From a virus (Duplodnaviria; Heunggongvirae; Uroviricota; Caudoviricetes): 11,657 bases of DNA. The notes under the pieces are model-generated. The model was not told the origin of the DNA. It did no database searches and saw only the letters and a list, made by a program, of their open reading frames with translations. The stretch lies in the IMG/VR virus record IMGVR_UViG_2537562189_000011, positions 1 to 11,657 of that record. One strand, given 5' to 3'. Numbering within the stretch: the first letter of the stretch is position 1; each line of letters begins with the position of its first letter. Below, one piece after another: positions 1 through 11,657 of this stretch. A program made the translations under genes and the position numbers.

Positions 1-441
1 TCATTCATCAGCGCCATACATCCAGTTATTGCGGTTAGCGGCCCGTTCTTCCTCCTCACGGAATCCACCCGCAGCACGCTTGTTTTTTGTGGACGGATCA
101 AGCCATTTCGTTTTCTGGTTATGACACGCCTGGCACAATGGCTGATGATTCCACTCAGGCCAGAAGAGAACATCATTACCGCCATCGATTGGGATAATGT
201 GATCCACCACCACGGCGGGCGTGTATATTCCTTTTTCCAGGCAATGCGCACATAACGGGTTTTTACTCAGATACATGGCGCGGTATTTCTCCCACTGCCT
301 CGTATACCCTCGCTCCCTGCTGCTGCCTCTCCGGCTGTCCTGCTGCTGGCGTGCGCTGCGTCTGTGCTCCTCACACTTGCCGGACTTCACGCGCCTGTTG
401 CAGCCTGGTTCTGTACATCGTCTTAATGGTTGCCACGGCAT
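1..441 (-). CDS. HNH endonuclease (packaging-associated)
   Basis: 146-aa ORF, ATG at 441-439, stop at 3-1. Cys-x2-Cys ... VVDHIIP ... N ... Cys-x2-CHNQK zinc-finger HNH motif. Start overlaps the stop of the upstream connector gene by 1 nt (TGATG). Confidence 0.85.
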   Translation of the reverse strand: MPWQPLRRCTEPGCNRRVKSGKCEEHRRSARQQQDSRRGSSRERGYTRQWEKYRAMYLSKNPLCAHCLEKGIYTPAVVVDHIIPIDGGNDVLFWPEWNHQPLCQACHNQKTKWLDPSTKNKRAAGGFREEEERAANRNNWMYGADE

Positions 442-737
442 CAGTACACCCCCACATCACGGTAAGCCGTCCAGAGTGCGCCAATCGTCATGGGTACGTG
501 TGTTTTTGCGTTATCCGCGACAATCTGGCGATTCTCATACAGGTGAGCGATAAACATCATGCAGCCAATCTTTATGGCTGGCGTGAACTCCAGCCCGTCA
601 TCAAAGCGCCTGCCTATGTGTATCTGGCACGCCTCAAGCGATGCGGCAATGTATCCGCTGATTAACTGGTCTTCCTCGTCTCCATCGATACGGCAATGGA
701 GTTTCACTTCTTCCAGGGTGATAAGTTCTTCTGTCAT
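441..737 (-). CDS. Head-tail connector protein (gp6-like)
   Basis: 98-aa ORF; N-terminus MTEELITLEEVKLHCRIDGDEEDQLISGYIAASLEACQ matches the conserved start of gp6-like connector proteins. ATGA overlap with the upstream gene. Confidence 0.75.
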   Translation of the reverse strand: MTEELITLEEVKLHCRIDGDEEDQLISGYIAASLEACQIHIGRRFDDGLEFTPAIKIGCMMFIAHLYENRQIVADNAKTHVPMTIGALWTAYRDVGVY

Positions 738-1072
738 TTTTCCGCGCCCTCACGACAAAGAATTTCAAGGCGTGTCCTGGCGACATCCGGCAACGGCTGC
801 CCGATGATATTCAGTACACGCCCCGCCAGCGGCCCCGTACTGACCTTTATCCGGCTGGTGGCGTTGATGTCCTTCCGGTACCGTATCCAGATCCTTACGG
901 TACCAATCGCCAGCTCTGCGCCCGATGAAATGGCCTCCTTGCTGCTGATCATGTTCACGCTTGCCCAGAGTGTGTGACCGTCCTCCCACGTTTCGAGTAT
1001 TTCGCCCGTCATGGCTCTGGTCTGTTTCAGGGTCTGAATCGTTATCCTGTCACGCAGTCGCCCTATGTTCAT
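734..1072 (-). CDS. Head closure / head-tail adaptor protein
   Basis: About 112 aa from ATG 1072-1070, which overlaps the portal stop as ATGA; an alternative ATG at 1114 would give 126 aa. MNIGRLRDRITIQ ... VRIWIRYRKDI pattern typical of head closure proteins. Confidence 0.65.
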   Translation of the reverse strand: MNIGRLRDRITIQTLKQTRAMTGEILETWEDGHTLWASVNMISSKEAISSGAELAIGTVRIWIRYRKDINATSRIKVSTGPLAGRVLNIIGQPLPDVARTRLEILCREGAEK

Positions 1073-2277
1073 TCCGGTTTTTCTCCCTCGCTGATTTTTA
1101 CTTCCTGTTTCCATGCCTGACTGAACTCATCACCACCATCACGCGGTGACAGTCCTTCACGTTCGCGGGCTTCGTTCGGGCACATAACGCCGGATTTGAT
1201 GCCGCGCTCATAGGTGGCAAAGCGTTCGCCAGGTGTGGCCCGTAACAGGTCCGCGCTGTCAAACTCCACCTGATACCGGATACCAGGTACAGGCGAGGCC
1301 ACCAGCAGGGCGTTTTTTATCTGCTGCTCAAAGTTCGCCAGCCACGGGCGCATCGTCATGGTGAGAAATGCGCGGCTTGCCTCGCTGAAATTGCTGTAGG
1401 TGCTGTTGCTGTATTCCTGCAAAAAAATCGGCGAGACGTTGAACATTCGGGCGATGTCTTCAATGGTAAAGCGACGGGAGGCCAGCCATTCAGCATCCTG
1501 ATTACTCATGCCCAGCTGCTGATAGCTCATCCCCCCTTCAAGGATGGGCGTTTTTCCGGCGTTTCTGGCCCCTTTGTAGCGTTCCAGTGCGGCTAATGCC
1601 TGTTTGCCCTTCACGCCGTCCAGCCATTCGCCTGACGTGATAACCCCTGCCGCCATCATGCCATCACGCATCACGCTCGCGCCGTGGCGTTGTTGGGCCA
1701 GCCCAAGCCCCAGCGATTCGCGGCAGATGGTTACAGGTGAGCGCCCCATAAAGCCGTCATCCGTGGAGTAACGAAGGTGAAGTACTTCCCACGGTAAATA
1801 GTTGTGGGTGTTTCCGGTGTAGGCGTCAGTGATGCAATAGCGCCAGTTGTGTTCGCCTGTCTGCTCCACGTTCACCGACTGCGGCGGGTAAGGATGTAAA
1901 GCCGCCGGAAAACCATCACGCCCCCACTGAATAACCGCATAAGCATTACCGTTTAACAGGCAGTGGCGGATCATCATTCGCTTAAACTGGTAGGGGGTTT
2001 GCCATGCGTTCGGGCGCTCGTTGAGGATGTGATCGACCGGATGAGAATCAAGCCACTCGCGGGCCTCCTTCCCCTTCTCATTGCGTACCAGGTACAGGTA
2101 GCATGGCATAGTAGCCACCGCCTCAGAGATGACCGTAACGGCGTTCATGACGGCAGGCAGTGATTCCGCTGTCCCCGATGATACGTACTCACCCGCCCCC
2201 GTGTTCGATGTGCCAGCCAGCGCCATAAATTCATCAAGCGTCATGCTGCGCTGCTCTTTTTTCTTCTGAAAGGCCAC
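1069..2277 (-). CDS. Portal protein (HK97 family)
   Basis: 402-aa ORF in the size range and position of HK97-type portals. GTG start at 2277 preceded by GGGGG; alternative ATG at 2244 (MTLDEF...). Lies 3 nt after the protease stop. Confidence 0.8.
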   Translation of the reverse strand: MAFQKKKEQRSMTLDEFMALAGTSNTGAGEYVSSGTAESLPAVMNAVTVISEAVATMPCYLYLVRNEKGKEAREWLDSHPVDHILNERPNAWQTPYQFKRMMIRHCLLNGNAYAVIQWGRDGFPAALHPYPPQSVNVEQTGEHNWRYCITDAYTGNTHNYLPWEVLHLRYSTDDGFMGRSPVTICRESLGLGLAQQRHGASVMRDGMMAAGVITSGEWLDGVKGKQALAALERYKGARNAGKTPILEGGMSYQQLGMSNQDAEWLASRRFTIEDIARMFNVSPIFLQEYSNSTYSNFSEASRAFLTMTMRPWLANFEQQIKNALLVASPVPGIRYQVEFDSADLLRATPGERFATYERGIKSGVMCPNEAREREGLSPRDGGDEFSQAWKQEVKISEGEKPE

Positions 2278-2280
2278 ATA

Positions 2281-2853
2281 TCACACCCCCGCTAAATCCA
2301 CCCACCAGCGGCGATTATCCGCACGCGGCATTTTTTCGGGGTGCTGCTCATACAGGGAACGGCGGGCCAGCTCCACGCCGGAATCGGGGTAAGCCGGTAC
2401 CGATGTAACGGTAATTTCGTACAGTTCCGCCACCAGCACGGTGCGCACGCATGGATCTGTTGTGGTATCCCATACATCCTTACGGGAGCGAAAGCCAAAG
2501 CTCATGCCGGATATATCACCACGTTTAACCAGTTCGATAACGTCGCGCCCTGTACTGGTATCCGGTGGGGTCAGTTCAAAGCGTAACCCTGTTTCATCCT
2601 CTTCCAGTTTCAGCGTGCCGGAACGGGTGCGCCCCAGTAACATACTGTGGTCATGCTCATACAGGCCGCGAACGTCATTACCCGCCGCAAGCCATTCAGT
2701 AAACGCCCCCCGCTGGAATTTTTCGTAAAACTCACCCCATAACAGTTCTGAAAGCTTATCCCAGCGAACAACGTAGCCTGTAAGCGTGTTGCTGCCGCTG
2801 GTGGTGATTTCCGATGACCGGATTTCCATACTCTTCATAATTTTTTCACCCAT
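2281..2853 (-). CDS. Prohead maturation protease (HK97 / S78 family)
   Basis: 190-aa ORF between the capsid and portal genes, with sequence character of HK97-type prohead proteases. Three in-frame ATGs at 2853, 2838 and 2829; 2838 has the best spacing to a GGTGA Shine-Dalgarno. Confidence 0.8.
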   Translation of the reverse strand: MGEKIMKSMEIRSSEITTSGSNTLTGYVVRWDKLSELLWGEFYEKFQRGAFTEWLAAGNDVRGLYEHDHSMLLGRTRSGTLKLEEDETGLRFELTPPDTSTGRDVIELVKRGDISGMSFGFRSRKDVWDTTTDPCVRTVLVAELYEITVTSVPAYPDSGVELARRSLYEQHPEKMPRADNRRWWVDLAGV

Positions 2854-2882
2854 AAAACACTAAAGGGGCTTTTAAGCCCCTT
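2852..2882 (-). terminator. Intergenic hairpin with U-tract between capsid and protease genes (candidate attenuator)
   Basis: AAGGGGCT (2863-2870), loop TTTA, AGCCCCTT (2875-2882). On the minus strand the stem is followed by UAGUGUUUUAU. Confidence 0.45.
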
Positions 2883-2892
2883 CTGTATGCTG

Positions 2893-4050
2893 TTAATCGT
2901 CGTCCTGTGGCAGTTCCAGAATCTTGATCGCGTTCGAATCCACCACGCCACCGCCTAAATATTTCTGCGTGAAAATTTTGATGAAGCCCGGCTCTGTGAG
3001 GTTGTCCGGTCTGGTGCGAACACCTGTTTCGTGATCAACAATGTAGTAACCGCGTTTGAAGTCACCCAGGGCAATAACGTTATCAGGCATAAACTCCAGA
3101 TATTCGACCGGAAGGCCCAGCAACGTATCAGGATCACCCGCCTGTAAACGGTCACGCCAGATGTAATCACCGTTCGCGTTCTTCACCTTCTGGAGTTTTG
3201 CCGCCGTCGTGGAGTTAACCACCCAGACCGCGTTTTTGCGGTATTTTTTACGTAATGCAAATTTCAGGTCGATCAGCGGGTCCGCAGATGTCCACGCCAG
3301 AGATTCGGAAGGTTTAATTACCTGCAACGTACCAAAATCACGCTCTTTGTCGTTCTTCTCTGCACGGGGTACGGATAAAAAGCCTTTTGCTTTTTTGTCA
3401 CCGTCGCCCACAACCAGATCGCTTTCTTCGGTTTCCGTGAAGGTGTCGCCAATCTCGCCCGTCAGCCATGAAAGGATGTCCACATCGGAAAAATCCACGA
3501 TTTCCTGTGTGGTGCGCGGGTACGCATAGACCGGATACAGCTTAATGCTCACCTCGTTAATCTGCGGGGTGCTGGTCTGTTCGCGTGCCTTACCCTCTTC
3601 ACCGTGGTTAACGGTCGCACCGCCAGCGGAAACAAGCTGCTTAAACTCGTTGCTGCTGATTTTTTTCACGGTACAGATGCGGCGCATGGTGGACTCATCC
3701 GCCAGCATTCGCATGATTTCGGTGTTCAGTTCGGGGATAACGGTATAACCACCATCAGCGGGAACGCCTGTACTTAATGCGCGGGTTTCACCTGTCAGAA
3801 TGTAGTTGCGGAGTTCTGCGGGGTCAGTGGTCTGACTGCTTTTACCTGGCTTGCTGCGCTCTTCGTCTGCAATGGCTTCAAGGCGGGAAATGTCTTTATC
3901 GAGGGATTCAGCTTTAGCGCGTAATTCGTCAAATTTTGCGCCCTCTGCATCGTTAAGGCTGCGGTTTTCTTTTTCCGCGTTCTCCAGCATGTCGCGCATC
4001 TGATTTTTAATGGCGGTTTTCTGCTGGCGTAATTCGATTATTCTCGGCAT
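2893..4050 (-). CDS. Major capsid protein (HK97 fold) with N-terminal scaffolding-like delta domain
   Basis: 385-aa ORF, ATG at 4050. The N-terminal ~100 aa is charged and coiled-coil-like (ELRQQKTAIKNQMRDMLENAEKENRSLNDAEGAKFDELRAKAESLDKDISRLEAIADEE), as in the delta domain of HK97-type capsid proteins; no separate scaffold gene is seen. Confidence 0.85.
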   Translation of the reverse strand: MPRIIELRQQKTAIKNQMRDMLENAEKENRSLNDAEGAKFDELRAKAESLDKDISRLEAIADEERSKPGKSSQTTDPAELRNYILTGETRALSTGVPADGGYTVIPELNTEIMRMLADESTMRRICTVKKISSNEFKQLVSAGGATVNHGEEGKAREQTSTPQINEVSIKLYPVYAYPRTTQEIVDFSDVDILSWLTGEIGDTFTETEESDLVVGDGDKKAKGFLSVPRAEKNDKERDFGTLQVIKPSESLAWTSADPLIDLKFALRKKYRKNAVWVVNSTTAAKLQKVKNANGDYIWRDRLQAGDPDTLLGLPVEYLEFMPDNVIALGDFKRGYYIVDHETGVRTRPDNLTEPGFIKIFTQKYLGGGVVDSNAIKILELPQDDD

Positions 4051-4140
4051 AAAAAAAGTACCTGGGTTAAGTAAGGAACTCCAGGACGCGGCAAAAACTC
4101 AACCGTTTTTCATAAGGAAATCAGCAATCGCACCGATCGT

Positions 4141-4246
4141 TTTCCCGCCTGGTAATGAATATTGGTGAGCACATTAACAGGCGGGAAAGTGGCCCCAGCG
4201 TCCTGGCACCACTGGCGAGAATAATCATGATTCAGGGCGGGTAAAA
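4141..4246. promoter_or_regulatory. Inverted and direct repeats of TTTCCCGCCTG upstream of the capsid operon (candidate regulator binding sites)
   Basis: TTTCCCGCCTG at 4141-4151 is the exact reverse complement of CAGGCGGGAAA at 4178-4188; an inner TAATG/CATTA pair (4153-4157 / 4172-4176) extends the palindrome. A related CAGGGCGGGTAAAA lies at 4233-4246. All are 90-200 bp upstream of the capsid start. Confidence 0.4.
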
Positions 4247-4291
4247 TATGCCGATCCGGTCAATGAACAACGTGGAACGACCACGAACAAA

Positions 4292-4330
4292 TAATTTACA
4301 AAAATTACAAAAAGCCGGATTTCTCCGGCT
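4292..4330 (-). terminator. Rho-independent terminator separating the replication/regulatory operon from the capsid operon
   Basis: Stem AGCCGGA (4313-4319), loop TTTC, TCCGGCT (4324-4330). On the minus strand it is followed by UUUUGUAAUUUUUGU, and it sits immediately 3' of the stop at 4337. Confidence 0.6.
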
Positions 4331-4336
4331 GTTTGA

Positions 4337-5029
4337 TTAGCTGTCCTGGTAATTGCGCCATATTTCATCACCAGCACCATCTATACCCATTTCGGCATAA
4401 GTGCGATCGACTGCCTTTTTCAGGTCTCCGAAATTATCCGGCGGCTCCGGTGCCCTCTGTGCCTTCCTTGAACATTCCAGCCGTCGCATCGTGATGTGAT
4501 GCCGTTCCTTGTCTGTCTCCACCAGCTGCATGACTTCACCCCATCGCGCCGCCGCCCTCCGGTAAAAGCCTTTCGCCTCCAGTTCCTCCGCTATGCGGTC
4601 ATGTACCATCGTCACCCCCTCAGAACGAAATATCATCACCGTAAGGGTCATCGCTCCCGCTGGTGGCTGATTACCCTGTGTGCCTGTGGTTTTGCGTCTG
4701 TTCCCGCCAGGAAGTGCCGCACGGGCACTGATTACGCTGTCTGCAATAACCTGATAACCCTGCCGCGTTTCCCCATTCTGTCCGGTCCACTGGCTGACCT
4801 GCATCGTGCCGGATACGCTGGCAACGTCGCCTTTTTGATGTTTAGCCAGGAAGTCGGCCTGCTTACCAAATGCGATGACCGATAGCCATAACGTCGCCTG
4901 CCCATCCTGCGCCTGACTACATGGCAGCGATACCGCCATACGCGCCAGCGTCATCGGTGTACCCTTGCTGGTCTGTTTTACCTGCTGGTCGTCCACCAGC
5001 CGCCCGTAAGCCGCTATCTGTGCTGTCAT
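4337..5029 (-). CDS. Two-domain protein: N-terminal SSB-like OB fold, Gly/Pro/Gln linker, C-terminal PerC-like small-regulator domain
   Basis: 230-aa ORF, ATG at 5029 overlapping the upstream stop (ATGA). Residues 1-105 follow the SSB OB-fold pattern (GRL..D..V ... TLW.SVI.FGK.A.F..K..KGD ... WT...G..R). The C-terminal ~90 aa carries AEELEAKGFYRRAAARW, recalled from PerC-type regulators. An internal ATG at 4609 has a strong GAGGGGG Shine-Dalgarno 5 nt upstream. Confidence 0.55.
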   Translation of the reverse strand: MTAQIAAYGRLVDDQQVKQTSKGTPMTLARMAVSLPCSQAQDGQATLWLSVIAFGKQADFLAKHQKGDVASVSGTMQVSQWTGQNGETRQGYQVIADSVISARAALPGGNRRKTTGTQGNQPPAGAMTLTVMIFRSEGVTMVHDRIAEELEAKGFYRRAAARWGEVMQLVETDKERHHITMRRLECSRKAQRAPEPPDNFGDLKKAVDRTYAEMGIDGAGDEIWRNYQDS

Positions 5030-5277
5030 GCCGTCTGCTCTCCGGTTTTAACGTTGATGGTTGTTACCTGTTCCGCTTCGGCAATCTCCCGTTCTGTCAA
5101 CGTGGCAAAGTTTGCCGCTGCTGTGGTCATGAATGCGCTTATCAGTTCGGGATGCTCCTTCGCGTATCCTTCCCCCGCGTGGCGGTCTATCGTCCTGATT
5201 GCCACCTTTAAGGCCAGTTCAGCCATATCTAACGCCTTATATTTCGGCTCTGTTCTGTCTCTGCGTTTTTGGGTCAT
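5026..5277 (-). CDS. Hypothetical protein (about 83 aa), translationally coupled to the SSB-like gene
   Basis: The ORF track extends to a TTG at 5334 (102 aa), but that extension is encoded by the iteron repeats. ATG at 5277 (MTQKRRDRTEP...) has a GAGAGG Shine-Dalgarno; a further ATG lies at 5226. No recognised domain. Confidence 0.45.
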   Translation of the reverse strand: MTQKRRDRTEPKYKALDMAELALKVAIRTIDRHAGEGYAKEHPELISAFMTTAAANFATLTEREIAEAEQVTTINVKTGEQTA

Positions 5278-5288
5278 TTCTCGCAACC

Positions 5289-5479
5289 TCTCACTTTTTC
5301 GCCTCACTTTTTCAAGCGTCTCACTTCGTCGCAATTGGGATTTTTGGTTTTTCTATGTGTGTGTTTCATAAGTATTTTTTTACCCCTCACTTTTGAGGAT
5401 GTATACAGGTAGAAAAGTGAGGGAGAGCAGGCTAATTTTGGCCCTCTTTCTATCCACCTCGCTTTTGCTCCTCACTTTT
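5289..5479. repeat. Iteron cluster (CTCACTTTT) flanking an AT-rich segment; candidate replication origin
   Basis: Perfect copies at 5290-5298, 5304-5312, 5387-5395 and 5471-5479, one inverted copy (AAAAGTGAG, 5413-5421), and degenerate copies at 5320-5328 (CTCACTTCG) and 5459-5467 (CTCGCTTTT). AT-rich core at 5331-5384. Lies immediately 3' of the helicase gene. Confidence 0.6.
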
Positions 5480-6459
5480 ATAGCGGCGCTACATCATCCC
5501 CATCGATACGAATAACCCCATCTTTTTCCAGCTTGTACAGCCAGCGCCGGAAGTTTTTCATTTCATACCCCAGCTTTTTCATGTCATCACGTAACAGCGG
5601 GATCGTGCACTTGTCGCCGTTCTGTGTGCGTGAACGGATGCACCCCCATAGCGCGGTATGGTTTTCCGTCTTGTTCCCTGCCTCCTCGATGCGCTCCAGT
5701 TCAACGGGAGGGCGCGGCTTATCCACCACCACCAGCGACGTGATTAATTCACCGTCAGCGTCGGTAAAAAGCTCCACCACGCGTAAGTCATATGCGGCTT
5801 CTTTGAGTTCCTCCGCGTCCTTCATTTTGGTGCATGAGATAACCAGCGCTTCGCCTCCTGCGTCCTCCCTGCGTATCCGGTATTCAGCATCCAGCGAAGC
5901 ACGAAATGCACTGGAACCGCGCGCGCCTTTCGCTCATCCTTGCCGGAATGGTGAACCACCAGCACCGTGGCCCCTGTGCGTCGATTCAGTTCGTCACAAC
6001 CACGGATAAACGCCCCCATATCACGGGAATCATTTCATCATTCCCACCAAGGCAACGCGCCAGCGTATCCAGAATAATCATGCGTACAGGTTTACCCGTT
6101 TCCCGCTCCACCTGACGGGCAGCGATAACCATTTCATCAACATCAAGCGGGGCAGCCGGAAAGATGGGGCGGTTTACCAGATACAGATTTTTCACCTGCT
6201 CATCGTGCACAACCTCCCAGGCTTTTACACGACGCGGAACACCTATACCGCCTTCACCAACCACATAGAGAACCGCACCATGTGCAACCCTGCGGCCTCC
6301 CCACTGGCGACCAGTGGCAACATGGCACGCCCACGATCCGGCAAGGAATGATTTATAGGACCCGCTAGCCCCGTATATGCTGCATAGCGATACCGCCGGA
6401 ATAATCCCCTTAACCACGTAATCCAGTTGCGTGTCGTATCCGGTAGATCCAACGCTCAT
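5478..6459 (-). pseudogene. Replication helicase (AAA_25 / RepA-like) disrupted by two frameshifts
   Basis: Three consecutive minus-strand ORFs in three frames together form one helicase-like protein: Walker A GASGSYKS and Walker B MIILDTL (6459-5986), GATVLVVHHSGKD (6019-5822), C-terminal domain (5825-5478). Reading continuity needs about +1 nt near 6033-6035 and -2 nt in the CCGCGCGCGCC tract at 5917-5927, which restores ...HHSGKDERKARGSSAFRASLD.... Confidence 0.7.
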
Positions 6460-6875
6460 CGGTAGCGTGGTTTTTCGCTGGTGGTTTTTTCTTCCGCCGG
6501 CTCTTTCCCGCGCACCCGTTCCAGGTATTCGCGCCAGTTCTCCCGCATATGGCTGTGCATCCCTTCGGGGTAATAATTCGCATCAGTTACACCCGCCGCC
6601 GCCAGTTTGTGCGCAATGGCATTAATATTTGATGGCCTGATGTGGCCTGCCTTGTACAGCCGGACACAATAGCGCCCCTCGTCGATGATTCTCAGGTCTG
6701 CCAGTTCATCCAGTTGATCATCAGCCAGCACAACGGGAGGCACATTATCGCCAGCCAGTCGCCCGTCCTGTTCCTGCCACTGTTTCGCATGTGCCCAGGC
6801 ATCACTACCCGCAAAAATAATGACTTCGGTCATCTTGTCGTAAGGCTGTTTTTTTAAGTTCGGTGCGCTTTTCAT
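6456..6875 (-). CDS. Hypothetical protein (139 aa), coupled upstream partner of the helicase gene
   Basis: ATG at 6875 with AGGGG Shine-Dalgarno; ATGA overlaps with both the upstream gene and the helicase start. No confident domain assignment. Confidence 0.55.
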   Translation of the reverse strand: MKSAPNLKKQPYDKMTEVIIFAGSDAWAHAKQWQEQDGRLAGDNVPPVVLADDQLDELADLRIIDEGRYCVRLYKAGHIRPSNINAIAHKLAAAGVTDANYYPEGMHSHMRENWREYLERVRGKEPAEEKTTSEKPRYR

Positions 6876-7171
6876 TTCTTGCCCCTGAATCCGTTAATCA
6901 TGGTTTTCAGCTTCTGGATGTTTGCACGTGCCCTGGCGTTGCTGGTGGGCACGTTATGCGGCGCGGTCTGTACCAGAGAAAAATCACGCCGGAACTGATA
7001 AACAGGCATCACGCAATCATATTCGTAACCTTCACGGCGGTAAGTTACGCACCGTCCCGCCACGCCCTTAATCATTACCGTGCCGCCGTACTGGTCGCGG
7101 TAAATATCACCGCGCGTAAATTTAGGGTGAGTGTTGCCACTGGCAGTTAAGCCAGAATATTTAAGTTTCAT
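6872..7171 (-). CDS. Hypothetical protein (99 aa), first gene of the replication operon
   Basis: ATG at 7171 with a GGAGA upstream; ATGA overlap with the next gene; preceded by a 230-bp AT-rich intergenic region. No recognised domain. Confidence 0.5.
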   Translation of the reverse strand: MKLKYSGLTASGNTHPKFTRGDIYRDQYGGTVMIKGVAGRCVTYRREGYEYDCVMPVYQFRRDFSLVQTAPHNVPTSNARARANIQKLKTMINGFRGKK

Positions 7172-7403
7172 TATTTTTATTCTCCGGTGTGCTGTTCGTT
7201 ATATCTGTCGTGCAATGTCTCTATTTCCTGCAACACATTTATTACAGGCTCAAGAAGCGTTATTAATGATGTAATAATCCGCGTTTTTTTTGCTATTACG
7301 TTCATTATCGCCAAAGGATTCAAGGCACATCCGCAATATTTCCATCATATTTTCACTGTGAGAAAGTGCAAGAAATACGCGATCTGTTGTTTCGTGGTAA
7401 ATA

Positions 7404-7637
7404 TCACGCATGGCTTACATCCTCAGGAAATTTTCTTCTGTAACGAGCCTCTGCCACATATTCCGCATAATCGGCGGCGATATTCAGTACATCAAGCCCC
7501 GTTGATTTATATTCTCTCGTGGAAAGTAAGAAAAAAGCCGCTCTAATAAGTTCTGGCATTGACGAAAGCGCATCAGCCGCATCATCAGGAACGCCGGAAA
7601 ATTCCTGTTTCAGGGAATTAAAACGATCATCACGCAT
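7404..7637 (-). CDS. Hypothetical protein (77 aa); possibly the C-terminal half of a gene split at a homopolymer tract
   Basis: ATG at 7637 sits immediately 3' of a G9 run (C9 on the plus strand, 7640-7648). One extra G would fuse it in frame to the upstream ORF. Confidence 0.4.
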   Translation of the reverse strand: MRDDRFNSLKQEFSGVPDDAADALSSMPELIRAAFFLLSTREYKSTGLDVLNIAADYAEYVAEARYRRKFPEDVSHA

Positions 7638-7870
7638 AACCCCCCCCCATTTTCACAATCAGCAATCAGGATAGCTTTGGCCTCATTCAGCGCCGTATCA
7701 GCACTAAATTGCATGACAGCCAGTGAGTGAGGAACGAAAGCACCGGCATATTCTGTTTCGCTGGTGGCGTGCTTATGTGCCCTGTCCGCGATAACAGAAA
7801 TATCAATCAGCGCGTGCATCAGCGTTTTGATGGCTTCGGCGGCTGCGTCCGGTGTGGTTTTATTGTGCAT
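7610..7870 (-). CDS. Hypothetical protein (86 aa); possibly the N-terminal half of a gene split at a homopolymer tract
   Basis: ATG at 7870; the reading frame runs through the G9 tract (ENGGG) and stops 27 nt later. Confidence 0.4.
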   Translation of the reverse strand: MHNKTTPDAAAEAIKTLMHALIDISVIADRAHKHATSETEYAGAFVPHSLAVMQFSADTALNEAKAILIADCENGGGLCVMIVLIP

Positions 7871-8072
7871 AAAGCATCCCCTGAATATTCGTGTTAATCA
7901 TTCCGGCACGTTTTGTGATTTCCTGTAATGATTCCCTTGTGGCGACAATTGCTTCATCTGGTAAGTGGTAATTACACACCACGCGACCTTTATCCACATT
8001 GACCAGTAGCTGCCCTGTGAATTTCTCACGAAACTGAATGCGGTTAAGGTCAGTAAGTGACAGATTAATCAT
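7860..8072 (-). CDS. Hypothetical small protein (70 aa)
   Basis: ATG at 8072 preceded by a strong AGGAGG Shine-Dalgarno at 6-nt spacing; the ORF track's longer version starts at a GTG at 8114. Start overlaps the stop of the upstream gene. Confidence 0.5.
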   Translation of the reverse strand: MINLSLTDLNRIQFREKFTGQLLVNVDKGRVVCNYHLPDEAIVATRESLQEITKRAGMINTNIQGMLYAQ

Positions 8073-8262
8073 AGCGCACCTCCTGACGAATACGGGCGGC
8101 AAATACAGCAACACAACCTGACGGGCAACGGCTATGCGCTTCGCGTTCCGTCCAGGCGGTTACGTGGATGATTTGAGATTCTCCGGCACTCAGTGCCAGA
8201 AAACGCCACACAAAGGCCGTTTGTGTGTGTACAAGGTGTGGGGTATGATTTACGGCAACCAT
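8065..8262 (-). CDS. Hypothetical small protein (65 aa)
   Basis: ATG at 8262 preceded by GAGGAG at 5-nt spacing; the ORF track's longer version starts at a GTG at 8361. No recognised domain. Confidence 0.5.
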   Translation of the reverse strand: MVAVNHTPHLVHTQTAFVWRFLALSAGESQIIHVTAWTEREAHSRCPSGCVAVFAARIRQEVRYD

Positions 8263-8351
8263 AACGGCTCCTCGTTTACGTTGTTGGTTAGAAGCCCTGC
8301 GAGTGGTAATGACACTTGCGGGGCTTTGCTTTTTTAAGTGCTCTTGTGTTA

Positions 8352-8397
8352 AGGTGGTCACCTAACAATAGAAAGGCTAATTCAATAGGTGACCACT
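8352..8397. promoter_or_regulatory. Operator-like inverted repeat pair (GGTGGTCACC / GGTGACCAC) in the divergent intergenic region
   Basis: GGTGGTCACC at 8353-8362 and its near reverse complement GGTGACCAC at 8388-8396, centres 35 bp apart, between the minus-strand gene starting at 8262 and the plus-strand gene starting at 8457. Confidence 0.45.
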
Positions 8398-8456
8398 TGT
8401 CAACAATCAAACGCGATAAAAGCCCTAAAGGGGACGGGCAATCCCCACAATTCAGA

Positions 8457-8588
8457 ATGCGAATTTCTCCAGAGCTAAAAGAGCAATTCGATAAAGAAGC
8501 ACAGAGCGACGGCATAAGCCTAGCCAACTGGCTTAAAGAGTTGGGGCGCACTGAACTAAAGCGGCGCGGTATAGAACCCAAAGGATAA
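8457..8588 (+). CDS. Ribbon-helix-helix (Arc/CopG-like) DNA-binding protein, copy 1 (43 aa)
   Basis: MRISPELKEQFDKEAQSDGISLANWLKELGRTELKRRG fits the strand-helix-helix pattern of ribbon-helix-helix regulators (Arc/CopG-like). Nested in the 90-aa ORF-track ORF 8316-8588; Shine-Dalgarno is weak. Confidence 0.45.
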   Translation: MRISPELKEQFDKEAQSDGISLANWLKELGRTELKRRGIEPKG

Positions 8589-8590
8589 AA

Positions 8591-8637
8591 ACTATCAGCG
8601 CCGTGGTGTGAGGTACTACGGCGCATTGCTTTACAGG
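8591..8637 (+). repeat. 47-bp conserved hairpin element, copy 1
   Basis: ACTATCAGCGCCGTGGTGTGAGGTACTACGGCGCATTGCTTTACAGG, 46 of 47 identical to 9332-9378. Contains a GCGCCGT / ACGGCGC stem (extendable to 11 bp with G-U pairs). Begins 2 nt after the stop codon and ends 8 nt before the next ATG. Confidence 0.7.
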
Positions 8638-8645
8638 GCAGTACC

Positions 8646-8873
8646 ATGACCAACAACACACTATCACCAATACAAGACACGCAAACGCAAGATGATGAAA
8701 TCATCCGGCAAAGGCAGTCAGAAGCCTGCGCCAGACTTGAGGAAGAACTAACCAGAACAAAAATACCACCACCAGCGCCGCGCTTAGTGCCACCAGAAAA
8801 ATTTGCCCTTGAAGATTTTGTCGATAAATACCCACGGCGGCTTAAATCCGGCAAAAACCGACCGCCAGGATGA
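8646..8873 (+). CDS. Hypothetical small protein (75 aa), MTNN... N-terminus
   Basis: ATG 8 nt after the 47-bp element. The first ~50 nt are homologous to the start of the ORF at 9387. No recognised domain. Confidence 0.4.
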   Translation: MTNNTLSPIQDTQTQDDEIIRQRQSEACARLEEELTRTKIPPPAPRLVPPEKFALEDFVDKYPRRLKSGKNRPPG

Positions 8874-8892
8874 GTGCACAAAACCGAACTAT

Positions 8893-8930
8893 GAAACGGA
8901 TTATTCCGTTTCCGGGGCGTTTGTGTGTGT
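8893..8930 (+). terminator. Candidate terminator hairpin after the first plus-strand gene pair
   Basis: GAAACGGA (8893-8900), loop TTAT, TCCGTTTC (8905-8912), followed by CGGGGCGTTTGTGTGTGT. The T-tract is interrupted, so this is weak. A second hairpin ACGCCCCG / CGGGGCGT (8993-9026) is followed by TTGTTGTTTTGGG. Confidence 0.3.
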
Positions 8931-9036
8931 ATAAAGAGTAAGCTATGCTCTTTTATAGCCATAATCGTTACCTCAATTAATGGTTTGGTTAGACGCCCCG
9001 TATGTGTTCCCATCACTGCGGGGCGTTGTTGTTTTG

Positions 9037-9129
9037 GGTGTATTTCACCTTCATTTTTAAATCTACATTCAGGTGAAATACACCGCAAGACTTTTTTTAT
9101 CTTTTTTTTTGCGTATACTGAAATACACC
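9037..9129 (+). promoter_or_regulatory. Promoter/operator region of the second ribbon-helix-helix gene: GGTG-N5-CACC inverted repeats plus a TATACT -10
   Basis: GGTGTATTTCACC at 9037-9049 and its reverse complement GGTGAAATACACC at 9072-9084 (centres 35 bp apart); a third half-site TGAAATACACC at 9119-9129 overlaps a TATACT at 9114-9119; T-rich stretch at 9091-9110; AGGAG Shine-Dalgarno at 9137-9141. Confidence 0.5.
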
Positions 9130-9149
9130 GATTATCAGGAGAACCAGAA

Positions 9150-9329
9150 ATGGCAACAGGTGCAAAGAACGCAAAATCACAAATGACAACGGTCAGAATC
9201 CCGCATGAGGTAATGACCGATATTGAGCAACTTAAAGAACCTGGCGAAAGTACCGCCGGATTTCTAGTTACGGCAGCAAAAGGCGAGATCAAACGCCGCC
9301 AGCGCCGCAAGGCCAAAGAATCAGAATAA
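9150..9329 (+). CDS. Ribbon-helix-helix (Arc/CopG-like) DNA-binding protein, copy 2 (59 aa)
   Basis: ATG at 9150 with CAGGAG Shine-Dalgarno at 8-nt spacing. TTVRIPHEVMTDIEQLKEPGESTAGFLVTAAKGEIKRR fits the ribbon-helix-helix pattern. Nested in the 134-aa ORF-track ORF 8925-9329. Confidence 0.55.
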   Translation: MATGAKNAKSQMTTVRIPHEVMTDIEQLKEPGESTAGFLVTAAKGEIKRRQRRKAKESE

Positions 9330-9331
9330 TT

Positions 9332-9378
9332 ACTATCAGCGCCGTGGCGTGAGGTACTACGGCGCATTGCTTTACAGG
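9332..9378 (+). repeat. 47-bp conserved hairpin element, copy 2
   Basis: ACTATCAGCGCCGTGGCGTGAGGTACTACGGCGCATTGCTTTACAGG; same placement as copy 1 (2 nt after the stop, 8 nt before the next ATG). Confidence 0.7.
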
Positions 9379-9386
9379 TACACACA

Positions 9387-9536
9387 ATGACCAATAAAGA
9401 ATCAACCAATACACCATCGCAAAAAACGAACAGAGAGCACGAAAATATGGCGCTCGAGCATGAATCAGAAAGATTCGCTCCATGCGCTTTTGTCCTTGAT
9501 GAGTTTCTAAAAAATATTCACGTTCTGAACGGATGA
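9387..9536 (+). CDS. Hypothetical small protein (49 aa), MTNK... N-terminus; not in the ORF track
   Basis: ATG at 9387 to TGA at 9534-9536, translated by hand: MTNKESTNTPSQKTNREHENMALEHESERFAPCAFVLDEFLKNIHVLNG. Position and first codons parallel the ORF at 8646. Confidence 0.3.
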   Translation: MTNKESTNTPSQKTNREHENMALEHESERFAPCAFVLDEFLKNIHVLNG

Positions 9537-9657
9537 AAATGGCAGCACAATACGGCCCCAACAAGCAAGGTAATTGCCCACCAGCCTGATCACGGTTATC
9601 ATGTTCGGGCTTATGATTGTTGACACATACGGCGCAGCGGGTTAATTGTTCAGAAAG

Positions 9658-9684
9658 GCGGTTCCATATCGGGACCGCTTTTTT
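9658..9684 (+). terminator. Rho-independent terminator closing the plus-strand regulatory cassette
   Basis: Stem GCGGTTCC (9658-9665), loop ATATC, GGGACCGC (9671-9678; 8 bp including one G-U), followed by TTTTTT (9679-9684). Confidence 0.6.
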
Positions 9685-9864
9685 ATGCCTGAAAATACCC
9701 TATAGCATGGCTTTTCAGATTCACCAGGGCGAACGAATCCCCGCCCCTGTACGGGCGTATATTTCATCATGGTTATACCTCAGTATTATGGCGTTTATTC
9801 CCGATACCGAGATCCCGGTATCGGTCAATAATGGATTGGTGGTGGCTGTGTGCCGCCAGTCTTT

Positions 9865-10053
9865 TTAGTGAACTGCCTTGCAGCTATCCTTCCAGGCCAA
9901 AACCTCAGATAAAGACCAGCCAACAGAACGCCCGCCAAGTTTACGACGTGATGGGAATTGTCCGGCCTTTTCCAGGCGGTAGCGGCATGAGCGGCTAAGG
10001 CCTGTTAGCTTTTCGCATTCTTTTTCACGTATAAACCGATCAGTGCTTAACAC
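9865..10053 (-). CDS. alpA: AlpA-family phage regulatory protein (small HTH regulator)
   Basis: 62 aa; RFIREKECEKLTGLSRSCRYRLEKAGQFPSRRKLGGRSVGWSLSEVLAWK matches the AlpA helix-turn-helix signature. GTG start at 10053 with AAGGGGG Shine-Dalgarno 5 nt upstream. Confidence 0.85.
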   Translation of the reverse strand: MLSTDRFIREKECEKLTGLSRSCRYRLEKAGQFPSRRKLGGRSVGWSLSEVLAWKDSCKAVH

Positions 10054-10427
10054 TATTGCCCCCTTTCGTTTCTTAAAGAGTTATTTCGTGTTCTATTGCG
10101 TTGGGATGTGTCTGATTGTGTCAGGATGATTCAGAGTTGGCAAATGTTGGTGTCGCATGGTTTACAGAAAGAGGAATAATCAGGATAAAATCATTTAAAT
10201 TCATGTTAATACAAAGGCATAAAATCTTGTTTTATGCTTTTTTTCGCACGCTTTAACGCGTAATTCACTAATGTATAAAAAACCAGCTGATCATTAAAAA
10301 TCAGTAACTTATAAATCTGTATTCTTTTTGGCCTCTTGTTCGTGATTGTGTCACGTTGTTGCACATTGTTTCACGTTGTATCTGTGCACTTATCCAGTAT
10401 GCGCATACTGAAAAAACACGAGAAAAA

Positions 10428-11657
10428 TTATTTTATTCTGGTTACTGGTAGCGTGGTTACGTTTTCATGTGTTCCCGCCAGTATCTCCAACCGCTCCACC
10501 CACATATCAAGCGCATTGCGTTTCGCATCAATATAGCGGGAATGGTTGTACACGCGTTGCATTCCTAGCATCTGGTGGCCTGTAAGCTGCTCCACGACGT
10601 GAGGATCAACGCCTAAATCGTTCAGCATGGTTGTAAAGGTGCGCCGGATGTCATGCAGTGACCAGTGAGGGTGTTTAAGCCTCCTGTGCACCAATCTGCC
10701 GTACTGCGATACGCTGGTTTCCTGTTTCACTTCCCCCAGCAATAAGCCCGTGTGCCTGTTCTGCTCCACCAGCTGCGTGACGAACGGCAGTATCGCTTCC
10801 GGTATGGGCCGGAATATGGCTACCTTCGTTTTGCTGTGCTCCTTCGGAACGGTCCAGAGCATTTCGGTAAAATCCCACTCGCCGATCTCCGATAACCTCA
10901 GTTCTACTGTCCGGCATCCGAAAACAATCAGGAGGCGGATTAGTGCGACGTAGTAAGGGGAAAATATTTTTTTGTCCAGTGCCTGCAATAATTCGCCAAG
11001 TTCTTTGTTACTTAAGACACGCTCACTTATATCCGGTTTTTTCCCAACGTCCGCCACACTCATATCATCAAGAACGTTGCTGATTGCATAGCGCCGCTTC
11101 CTGCAGAACTTAAGCGCCTGCTTGCATGTCTGTAGCAGGAACCCGGCGGAAACAGGGGCTTTCTTTGCCACCCGATCAAAACAGGCCAGCCAGTGCCGTA
11201 GCTCGCATTTATCCAGCGGCATAGGGCCAATGTGCTGTATTACGTGATTATTTAGCCGCTTTTTCAGTGGGTCATAATCCACACGGTTTTCCTTTGCGTA
11301 CGACTCAAGCCAGTAGGTGAGCGCATCGCCAACCGTTACCGGCTTTAACGCTTCCTGTACGGTGTAATTCATTTCATGACGTGGATTTTTCCCCTCTGCC
11401 AGCCATGCGCGACACTGGGCGGCTTTTTCCCTGGCTGATTTCAGGCTCAGATCAGGATAATTTCCCAGCTTAATGCGTTCCGGTGGTGCCCCCCTTCCCG
11501 TTCCGGCCCTGTAAGTGAAATACCAGGTTAAAAGGCCACTGGTTGAATGCCTGACGCTCAGGTTTCCACCGTCATTAAGAAAGGCTGTTTTTTGGGCGGG
11601 TGTGCCGTTGATTTTCCTCAGCTGGGTATCGCTCAGTTTGTTAAGTGCTCTGCTCAT
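10428..11657 (-). CDS. int: Tyrosine integrase, P4-type (site-specific recombinase)
   Basis: 409-aa ORF, ATG exactly at the window end (11657-11655), TAA at 10430-10428. N-terminal arm-binding-like domain (GLLTWYFTYRAGTGRG..RIKLGNYPDLSLKSAREKA) and a C-terminal catalytic domain with HxxR and a terminal Tyr region as expected for tyrosine recombinases. Confidence 0.9.
   Translation of the reverse strand: MSRALNKLSDTQLRKINGTPAQKTAFLNDGGNLSVRHSTSGLLTWYFTYRAGTGRGAPPERIKLGNYPDLSLKSAREKAAQCRAWLAEGKNPRHEMNYTVQEALKPVTVGDALTYWLESYAKENRVDYDPLKKRLNNHVIQHIGPMPLDKCELRHWLACFDRVAKKAPVSAGFLLQTCKQALKFCRKRRYAISNVLDDMSVADVGKKPDISERVLSNKELGELLQALDKKIFSPYYVALIRLLIVFGCRTVELRLSEIGEWDFTEMLWTVPKEHSKTKVAIFRPIPEAILPFVTQLVEQNRHTGLLLGEVKQETSVSQYGRLVHRRLKHPHWSLHDIRRTFTTMLNDLGVDPHVVEQLTGHQMLGMQRVYNHSRYIDAKRNALDMWVERLEILAGTHENVTTLPVTRIK

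Follow-up and report, generated by a model that had tools for sequence, protein, structure and literature searches.

The DNA analysed here, a stretch of 11,657 nucleotides that makes up positions 1 to 11,657 of IMG/VR record IMGVR_UViG_2537562189_000011 (hereafter the window), is a capsid-forming phage-inducible chromosomal island (cf-PICI) of Escherichia coli. Between alpA and a gene resembling icd it carries two consecutive cassettes on the plus strand (8352–9536), each made up of operator-like repeats, a gene for a small ribbon-helix-helix (RHH) protein, a 47-bp hairpin element (the 47-mer) and a second open reading frame (ORF2). We consider it probable that this is the immunity and early-control region of the island, laid out on the plan of P4 with RHH protein repressors rather than a CI RNA, and that the 47-mer serves as an intercistronic joint. 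An earlier interpretation of this DNA made without database searches (the sequence-only reading) had proposed a candidate immunity or repression switch at this site, a proposal that gains support from its location, which is that of P4 immunity between alpA and an Icd-like gene, and from operators that change with the type of RHH protein and lie inside a predicted leftward promoter. Its further idea, that the 47-mer might be an RNA immunity element like P4 CI, fared poorly: the window contains no RNA of the C4, isrK or seqA type, and the element is absent from relatives that have an intact switch.

In the mechanism that we favour, each module would comprise a leftward sigma-70 promoter facing the early and replication operon that is led by the icd/kil-like gene, type-specific operators, an RHH gene, the 47-nt hairpin joint and ORF2, with the operator repeats lying within the leftward promoter and beside the rightward one. 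An RHH dimer bound to its operators would turn the leftward promoter off and regulate its own synthesis, and two heterologous modules in series would provide two immunity specificities and two gated promoters. Upon induction by a helper, transcription driven by AlpA would be sustained, as in P4, by ribosomes translating a long open frame antisense to the cassettes (the eta-like frame), and its head-on passage through the RHH operons would flip the switch.

Operators vary with the ribbon-helix-helix proteins they adjoin

The first RHH gene (RHH1; 8397–8588, plus strand) encodes a 63-aa Arc-like protein (PHROG Arc-like repressor, 5e-7) whose best sequence match in the PDB is the Arc repressor, in a weak alignment (E 0.2). 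Translation most likely begins at the TTG at 8397, because homologues have an ATG there. The second gene (RHH2; 9150–9329, plus strand) specifies a 59-aa protein of the YlcI/YnfO family (NF041551; 62.1 bits versus a cut-off of 30), to which RHH1 gave no match, so that RHH2 is the only member of the two. Both proteins have the strand-helix-helix fold of ~45 residues that characterizes the Arc/MetJ/CopG class, including the G-x-S/T/N turn ahead of the second helix (GIS in RHH1 and GES in RHH2); among 32 YlcI homologues, residues G32, E33 and S34 vary little or not at all. The sequence-only reading had described tandemly duplicated paralogous units. The tandem itself is real, with a repeat unit that proved larger than had been noted, whereas comparison of RHH1 with RHH2 detected no sequence similarity; judged by these comparisons, the tandem is one of heterologous modules and not a plain duplication.

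Each RHH gene is adjoined by inverted or direct repeats specific to its type, consistent with binding of an RHH dimer or oligomer to these sites as operators. The operator pair described previously corresponds in unit 1 to a perfect 11-nt inverted repeat (8354–8396; arms 8354–8364 and 8386–8396, with 21 nt between them) and in unit 2 to a 14-nt inverted repeat (9037–9050 and 9071–9084) together with a third half-site (9119–9130; whole array 9037–9130) that adjoins a TATACT -10 element (9114–9119). Arc-type operators share a geometry, an inverted repeat with a gap of 20–21 nt, and one further module of this type (L170) repeats that geometry in another sequence. YlcI-type operators consist of three sites spaced 45 and 25 bp apart, with sequences that differ between modules.

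A script scan placed predicted leftward promoters directly over these repeats. P_left1 (8374–8403, minus strand; TTGACA-18-TAGCCT) has an operator arm in its spacer, and modules homologous to unit 1 have TTGACA-17-TATTAT or TACTAT at the corresponding place; P_left2 (9060–9088, minus strand; TTGCGG-17-TAGATT) likewise has operator sequence in its spacer. A predicted leftward promoter of the form TTGAC(A/G)-17-TAnnnT with an operator half-site in the spacer was present in 17 of 18 modules, including those of Pectobacterium, Edwardsiella and Serratia. An operator in the spacer of a predicted leftward promoter is the signature of a repressor that gates the promoter of the icd-led operon.

Modules are exchanged at conserved flanks

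The closest relative of the window, in E. coli NZ_CP146507 (locus L001), carries a nearly identical island with annotated int, alpA, Icd-like, RepA helicase and HK97-type capsid genes. The two islands are 99.5% identical rightward of 8582 and ~96% identical left of 8297, and the operator and RHH1 module that lies between could not be aligned, which places the right-hand breakpoint at the left edge of the 47-mer. The left-hand breakpoint falls in the conserved icd leader, just upstream of a terminator hairpin. Comparison of these islands thus documents module exchange at conserved flanks.

The tandem repeat unit also takes in a remnant of the icd 5' end and the leader hairpin with its terminator (8215–8340 versus 8915–9040, at a spacing of 700). 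The remnant (MAIKEHSLLFIHTQT...; 8880–8962, minus strand) is in frame with the long minus-strand open reading frame, and the junction of the tandem duplication lies near 8915. A palindrome, CACACAAAGGCCGTTTGTGTG, which resembles a terminator on the minus strand, lies at 8207–8227 within the first icd codons, with a copy at 8915–8927, and the left duplication junction coincides with this copy. The tandem layout recurs in relatives, where an ORF2 of the MTNN type, an icd remnant and a leader hairpin always stand between the modules and the second module is variable; the MTNN-type ORF2 belongs to the icd-proximal unit in every tandem array sampled.

A stop-free frame is maintained antisense to the cassettes

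The sequence-only reading had called the cassettes the only plus-strand coding region of the window. That holds, with the qualification that a long open frame of the minus strand overlaps them. The stop-free body of this eta-like frame (8291–9517, minus strand; 409 codons) is antisense to both cassettes and ends 26 nt ahead of the icd ATG, and its open reading frame starts upstream with a GAGG ribosome-binding site and a conserved N-terminal peptide, M..YTP..GRGFVRPGE (9642–9770, minus strand). In nearly all relatives, and in other genera as well, the minus strand of the gap between alpA and icd is a single stop-free frame. Its longest stop-free stretch in relatives is 540–1233 nt within the 1300 nt scanned, and up to 1386 nt over the whole gap, while the remaining two minus frames are open for only ~80–510 nt. 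The frame often begins at the alpA stop codon and often is in frame with icd, ending otherwise 7–28 nt ahead of the icd ATG.

The openness of this frame is enforced. Across 25 non-redundant plus-strand genes we observed 1 antisense stop in the eta-like phase, compared with 15.8 +/- 3.1 in synonymous shuffles (0 of 500 shuffles were as low) and with 92 and 77 stops in the other two phases. All four plus-strand open reading frames of the window are in one frame, and their wobble positions match the wobble positions of the minus frame. The frame also passes through the terminator hairpin at 9658–9684. Together, the avoidance of stops and the passage through this terminator are indirect evidence that translation of the eta-like frame may suppress termination in the PICI.

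In the window the eta-like start is out of frame with the body, owing to a run of six A residues at 9679–9684 where most relatives have seven. We examined and rejected a programmed -1 frameshift at A AAA AAG (9679–9686, minus strand): 20 of 22 distinct relatives have the seven-A run and read straight through, and the window has many other homopolymer deletions. At three loci (L029, L122 and L181) the eta-like N-terminus runs on into an ordinary-looking protein, possibly Bro/Ant-like, rather than into antisense junk. RefSeq labels the antisense strand of the cassettes as an 'Icd-like' or 'BRO-N' pseudogene at L002 (3850–4443), L003 (3884–4363) and L004 (3994–4249), in each case on the minus strand, and leaves the RHH gene unannotated in L002 and ORF2 unannotated in all three.

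The 47-mer as an intercistronic element

Copies of the 47-mer lie at 8591–8637 (hairpin 8598–8624, followed by the AGG ribosome-binding site of ORF2a) and at 9332–9378 (hairpin 9339–9365), both on the plus strand. They are identical at 46 of 47 positions, the sole mismatch being T/C at 8608/9349, and shuffled sequence gave 0 matches to such a repeat. As had been described from the sequence, each copy begins 2 nt past an RHH stop codon (TAA 8586–8588 and TAA 9327–9329) and ends 8 nt before an open reading frame that opens with ATGACCAA (starts at 8646 and 9387). The GC-rich stem-loop reported within the element was recovered as a predicted hairpin in both copies, with stems of 11 or 9 bp and a plus-strand folding z of about -2.7; the minus-strand fold is weaker and not distinctive (z -1.8). 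A covariance model of the hairpin, searched against the window and 81 loci (82 sources in all; 80 of these loci are icd-anchored), gave 77 matches representing 25 distinct sequences.

We propose, with modest confidence, that the 47-mer combines three roles. As the intercistronic part of an RHH-ORF2 mRNA it would place a stable hairpin after the RHH stop codon and supply the ribosome-binding site of ORF2; the hairpin is probably either a 3' stabiliser or a terminator that is leaky or has decayed; and the element would act as the right-hand homology arm for exchange of RHH modules between satellites. The tail that follows the stem in the window, ATTGCTTTAC, passes a simple terminator scan. Terminator activity is nonetheless doubtful, because the window has only a weak U-tract and some relatives have none.

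To define the distribution of the element, we searched 5426 complete E. coli genomes for a 62-nt core, which 1668 of them contained, at 2722 places in all (median 1 and maximum 7 per positive genome); neither the core nor the 47-mer had a match in the phage collection. Every one of 127 copies of the 47-mer sampled from IMG/VR contigs and E. coli genome records (the two copies of the window included) sits directly after an RHH-type open reading frame in a satellite-like locus. This context, together with the median of one copy per positive genome, speaks against a common host repeat unrelated to the island, the possibility on which the sequence-only reading had staked its claim. The 47-mer is confined to E. 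coli and Shigella. Among loci retrieved by icd, and thus unbiased with respect to the hairpin, it was present in 66 of ~75, in two copies in 5 of them, and in ~9 the RHH gene runs straight into the downstream terminator with neither hairpin nor ORF2. Some loci keep the hairpin and carry a lipoprotein gene or other DNA in place of ORF2. In two of the loci (L198 and L040) a small lipoprotein-like gene (MLKLKKHVPMMVALIITIFLLISC...) stands in for ORF2 behind a variant hairpin, and it follows that the site behind the hairpin takes different cargo. Satellites of Pectobacterium, Edwardsiella and Serratia have YlcI-type RHH genes in the corresponding position, share the leader and operator layout, and carry an ordinary terminator where the hairpin of the 47-mer would be. 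Since the 47-mer is missing where the RHH gene is the last gene and in other genera, it is a lineage-specific intercistronic element and not a core part of the switch.

These data bear directly on whether the 47-mer could, as an RNA, serve immunity or processing in the manner of P4 CI/seqA, an idea to which we give very little credence. Its position is equivalent to the P4 immunity region and it is a stable, highly conserved hairpin. However, at E up to 1 the Rfam models C4, isrK and c4-a1b1 match nothing in the window, whereas P4, run as a control, gave all three (75, 61 and 44 bits, respectively), and the element is dispensable in relatives. Moreover, the same 47-mer occurs across differing types of RHH protein and operator and therefore cannot carry immunity specificity. 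The sequence-only reading had found no complementary target for the element, and we arrived at the same result: a search for targets in trans that allowed G-U pairs returned only its own antisense strand and chance-level matches of 13–17 nt.

We also weighed whether the 47-mer acts through the opposite strand or through sense/antisense pairing, either as a kissing loop between convergent transcripts or by pausing ribosomes or RNA polymerase on the AlpA-driven transcript, as part of the switch. The 47-mer lies inside the enforced open frame of the minus strand, convergent transcripts would be fully complementary at this point, and its minus-strand reading (CKAMRRSTSHHGADS) is the sole conserved peptide stretch in the otherwise hypervariable body of the eta-like frame. 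Set against these points, the minus-strand fold is not distinctive, as described above, G-U pairs favour the plus strand, variation inside the 47-mer shows no synonymous bias in the minus frame upon sequence comparison, and both the RHH-only loci and the other genera have the switch without the element. We regard action through the opposite strand as improbable.

Several observations weigh against the interpretation of the region as an RHH-controlled switch joined by a functional 47-mer. All of the promoters described here are predictions from sequence. The study that established AlpA as an activator shows no repressor and calls the existence of one unclear (PMC6092414), and our literature search found no published link between RHH or YlcI proteins and PICI control. 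Two 1-nt homopolymer differences (the A run at 9679–9684 and the deletion at 9509) break the eta-like frame of the window, which is also out of frame with icd, and its translation matches no Pfam or NCBIfam family and resembles antisense junk. With regard to the 47-mer, covariation of the hairpin was not significant, with 88.4% of cells paired compared with 87.2% in shuffles and 1 pair changed on both sides among the 25 distinct sequences, which vary little. Inner pairs are lost in one common variant, GCGCCATAGTTTGAGGAACGCAGGCGC, and the U-tract is not conserved, the tails in relatives being ATTGCTATGC, ACAGGGTTAC or GCAATCATAG.

The lack of significant covariation would be expected if the 47-mer had no biochemical role at all and were a young, lineage-specific junction kept near-identical by repeated recombination or gene conversion and by its joint arrival with ORF2. 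Such an inert junction would also account for a swap breakpoint that falls exactly at the left edge of the 47-mer, for the restriction of the element to E. coli and Shigella when other genera with the same switch lack it, and for a hairpin core that is almost invariant, so that selection and recency are indistinguishable. On the other hand, the 47-mer is more conserved than the coding DNA on either side of it, and is so across non-homologous RHH modules; it stays when other genes replace ORF2; and rarer variants (L188, L200 and L198) differ from the common form in the stem only by G-U or G-C substitutions that preserve pairing, and do so on the plus strand only. A GC-rich hairpin of 27 nt fixed 9 nt past a stop codon is, in addition, unlikely to be inert in an mRNA. 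An inert junction thus seems to us unlikely, if far from negligible. Selection on the nucleic acid itself, which the sequence-only reading had deduced from the near-identity of the two copies, is plausible; recent spread and recombination could also explain that near-identity, because the 47-mer is a demonstrated breakpoint of module swaps.

ORF2 proteins match no toxin family

The two ORF2 genes of the window specify proteins of different types, ORF2a (8646–8873, plus strand; 75 aa) being of the MTNN type and ORF2b (9387–9536, plus strand; 49 aa) belonging to a family with an ERFAPCAF motif. Loss of 1 nt from an A-run at 9509 shortens ORF2b, which is 67 aa long in relatives. The proteins have a FALExF motif in common. 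At the nucleotide level, the first ~50 nt of the two genes are not conserved as had been thought: only ATGACCAA and patches beyond it are shared (25 of 51 nt, ungapped). None of the 36 clusters that make up the ORF2 family has a Pfam domain, and E. coli and Shigella account for all of them. When one genome of each species was scanned with an ORF2 profile, only Shigella flexneri was found, and for this reason no deep phylogeny of ORF2 is usable. We considered, and rejected, ORF2 as a lambda-N-like arginine-rich peptide acting on a boxB-like hairpin with a boxA-like tail, as the MTNN-type proteins have no arginine-rich stretch and the tail is not conserved.

The pairing of an RHH gene with a small downstream gene raises the question of whether the cassettes are toxin-antitoxin or defence cargo (RHH antitoxin plus ORF2 toxin) and not the satellite's own switch. 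This would fit the two-gene operon layout and a weak resemblance of RHH1 to the DNA-binding domains of HicB/CopG antitoxins. We nevertheless find it very unlikely. ORF2 matched no toxin or defence family: searches of Pfam and NCBIfam returned nothing, PHROGs returned only a family of unknown function (for ORF2b), and PADLOC gave one weak, probably spurious match. Moreover, ORF2 is optional or replaced in relatives, which retain the RHH gene and its operators all the same; the gene order puts RHH first, with its operators in the predicted promoter of the icd operon in 17 of the 18 modules; and the position of the cassette between alpA and icd is fixed across genera.

The icd leader and candidate antisense RNAs

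The leader hairpin that bounds the exchanged module on the left is, with its T-run, a plus-strand intrinsic terminator in the icd 5' leader by terminator scan (copy 1, 8291–8335; copy 2, 8992–9035, both plus strand). Copy 1 folds at -27 kcal/mol on the plus strand versus -16 on the minus strand. Among 20 relatives, 98% of cells are paired and 4 pairs are compensatory, a result equalled in 0 of 500 shuffles, and there are many G-U pairs, which become mismatches if read on the minus strand. A larger segment of the plus strand, 8256–8336, folds at z = -5.3 into two hairpins, the first of which presents the complement of the icd Shine-Dalgarno sequence in its loop; a second copy lies at ~8957–9035, and the same leader layout is found in the satellites of Pectobacterium, Edwardsiella and Serratia. 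This arrangement points to a possible short RNA, antisense to both the start codon and the ribosome-binding site of icd. A candidate promoter for such an RNA, TTGTGT-17-TATGAT, overlaps icd codons, and its signal is inseparable from coding constraint.

At the other end of the region, a promoter-like TTGCCC-17-TATCAT motif (9574–9602) and the strong terminator (9658–9684) that closes the cassette together span 9574–9684 on the plus strand. The motif is retained in 32 of 54 distinct relatives, and the terminator follows ~55 nt further on. This segment could specify an ~80-nt RNA complementary to the 5' portion of the eta-like open reading frame.

Other features of the window

The gene content of the window matches the definition of the cf-PICI family (10.1101/2022.09.08.507074): its open reading frames and the annotation of NZ_CP146507 provide int, alpA and replication genes together with the island's own capsid, protease, portal, connector and HNH/terminase genes. 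A P4-type integrase occupies 10428–11657 on the minus strand. It is followed on the same strand by alpA (9865–10053; PF05930, 65 bits), a homologue of P4 vis and the PICI activator, AlpA being established as an activator in Gram-negative PICIs (PMC6092414). The icd/kil-like gene, first of the leftward early operon, lies at 8065–8262 on the minus strand (NF033153 phage_ICD_like, 61 bits). Other genes of the window specify DUF4222, RepA-helicase, SSB, HK97-type capsid, protease, portal and HNH proteins.

Relative to its closest relative the window has 1-nt deletions, mostly in homopolymer runs, at 2257, 2841, 4654, 5933, 6033, 9509 and other positions. They split repA into four open reading frames, fuse ssb with perC, shorten ORF2b and break the eta-like frame, and represent either errors of long-read assembly or recent decay. 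A search of the whole window with Rfam returned a single, sub-threshold match, to the Brucella small RNA BSnc120 at 10199–10277 (minus strand, between int and alpA), which is probably due to chance (29 bits against a gathering score of 114).

Comparison with known systems

On the control of Gram-negative PICIs, their founding paper offers the activator AlpA only and leaves a repressor unclear (PMC6092414). For the means by which these islands stay silent, the RHH modules provide a concrete and widespread candidate: in E. coli as in Pectobacterium, Edwardsiella and Serratia, hypervariable RHH proteins are matched with operators in the predicted early-operon promoter. We tentatively put forward, as a possibility, that Gram-negative PICIs and many P4-like satellites have their missing master repressors, and the determinants of their immunity, in exchangeable RHH-operator modules, whose true genes overlap, in antisense, a translated eta-like frame. 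Induction would then consist of AlpA-driven, ribosome-protected, head-on transcription, perhaps helped by antisense RNAs over the icd ribosome-binding site and the eta-like start, and a tandem would represent two immunities against competing satellites. This scheme makes testable predictions for satellite immunity, for induction and for competition between co-resident satellites, with up to 7 copies of the 47-mer in one genome. It also concerns a region at present mislabelled by automatic annotation as Icd-like or BRO-N pseudogenes.

A 'Bro zone' has been described in Gram-negative PICIs, with immunity RNAs inside genes of a Bro network and with domain swapping (Tommasini et al. 2023, PMC10111431). 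The cassettes of the window occupy the same zone, between the integration and replication modules. They differ in that searches of Pfam and NCBIfam found no Bro-family domain on the long minus-strand open reading frame of the window, and that the description of the Bro zone mentions neither RHH or YlcI genes nor an antisense arrangement.

In the staphylococcal islands (SaPIs) and other Gram-positive PICIs, the repressor (Stl/Rpr) lies in divergent orientation between int and the operon for replication (PMC6092414). The putative RHH repressors of the window are similarly placed. Stl proteins, however, are large helix-turn-helix repressors that are inactivated by helper proteins, whereas those of the window are small RHH proteins for which nothing indicates targeting by a helper.

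The immI region of P22 contains the RHH repressors Arc and Mnt, ant and the sar antisense RNA, and that of P1 consists of c4 RNA, icd and ant, with icd as the controlled gene. The window resembles both in having small RHH repressors on divergent or overlapping predicted promoters of an operon whose first gene is small and either toxic or regulatory, and a short antisense RNA over the ribosome-binding site of that first gene is plausible here (8256–8336). Unlike the repressors of P22, the RHH proteins of the window are related to Arc or Mnt by fold only (Arc, E 0.2). In contrast to immI, the operon that would be controlled is that of satellite replication and packaging, and the putative repressor genes overprint an open frame in antisense orientation.

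The closest parallel is the immunity region of P4, which likewise comes after the vis/alpA homologue and before the replication genes. In P4 it consists of vis and eta/kil, with PLE, seqA, the CI RNA and seqC embedded in the latter. In P4 and in the window alike, a long reading frame with the immunity determinants embedded in it leads from vis/alpA to an Icd/Kil-like domain, interrupted in the window at the two homopolymer runs. The P4 eta open reading frame (P4 8168–8812) overlaps vis, contains the CI/seqA RNAs and ends in an Icd-like domain, its C-terminus matching the same NF033153 model as the icd gene of the window. This homology was settled by profile search, a BLASTP comparison of the window's Icd with the old P4 'cI' open reading frame having given no match. 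Translation of P4 eta prevents termination of the late transcript (summarized in PMC10111431). In the window, the place of the C4/CI, isrK and seqA RNAs of P4 is taken by RHH protein genes on the opposite strand and by DNA operators. Given that the eta plan is shared and the P4 RNAs are absent, we read the region as an immunity region of the P4 type with RHH genes of the opposite strand in place of the CI RNA. The overprinting of these genes in a frame whose openness is under selection would tie PICIs mechanistically to the eta/CI paradigm of P4, with the difference that modules of the kind found in the window can be exchanged between satellites and stacked in tandem.

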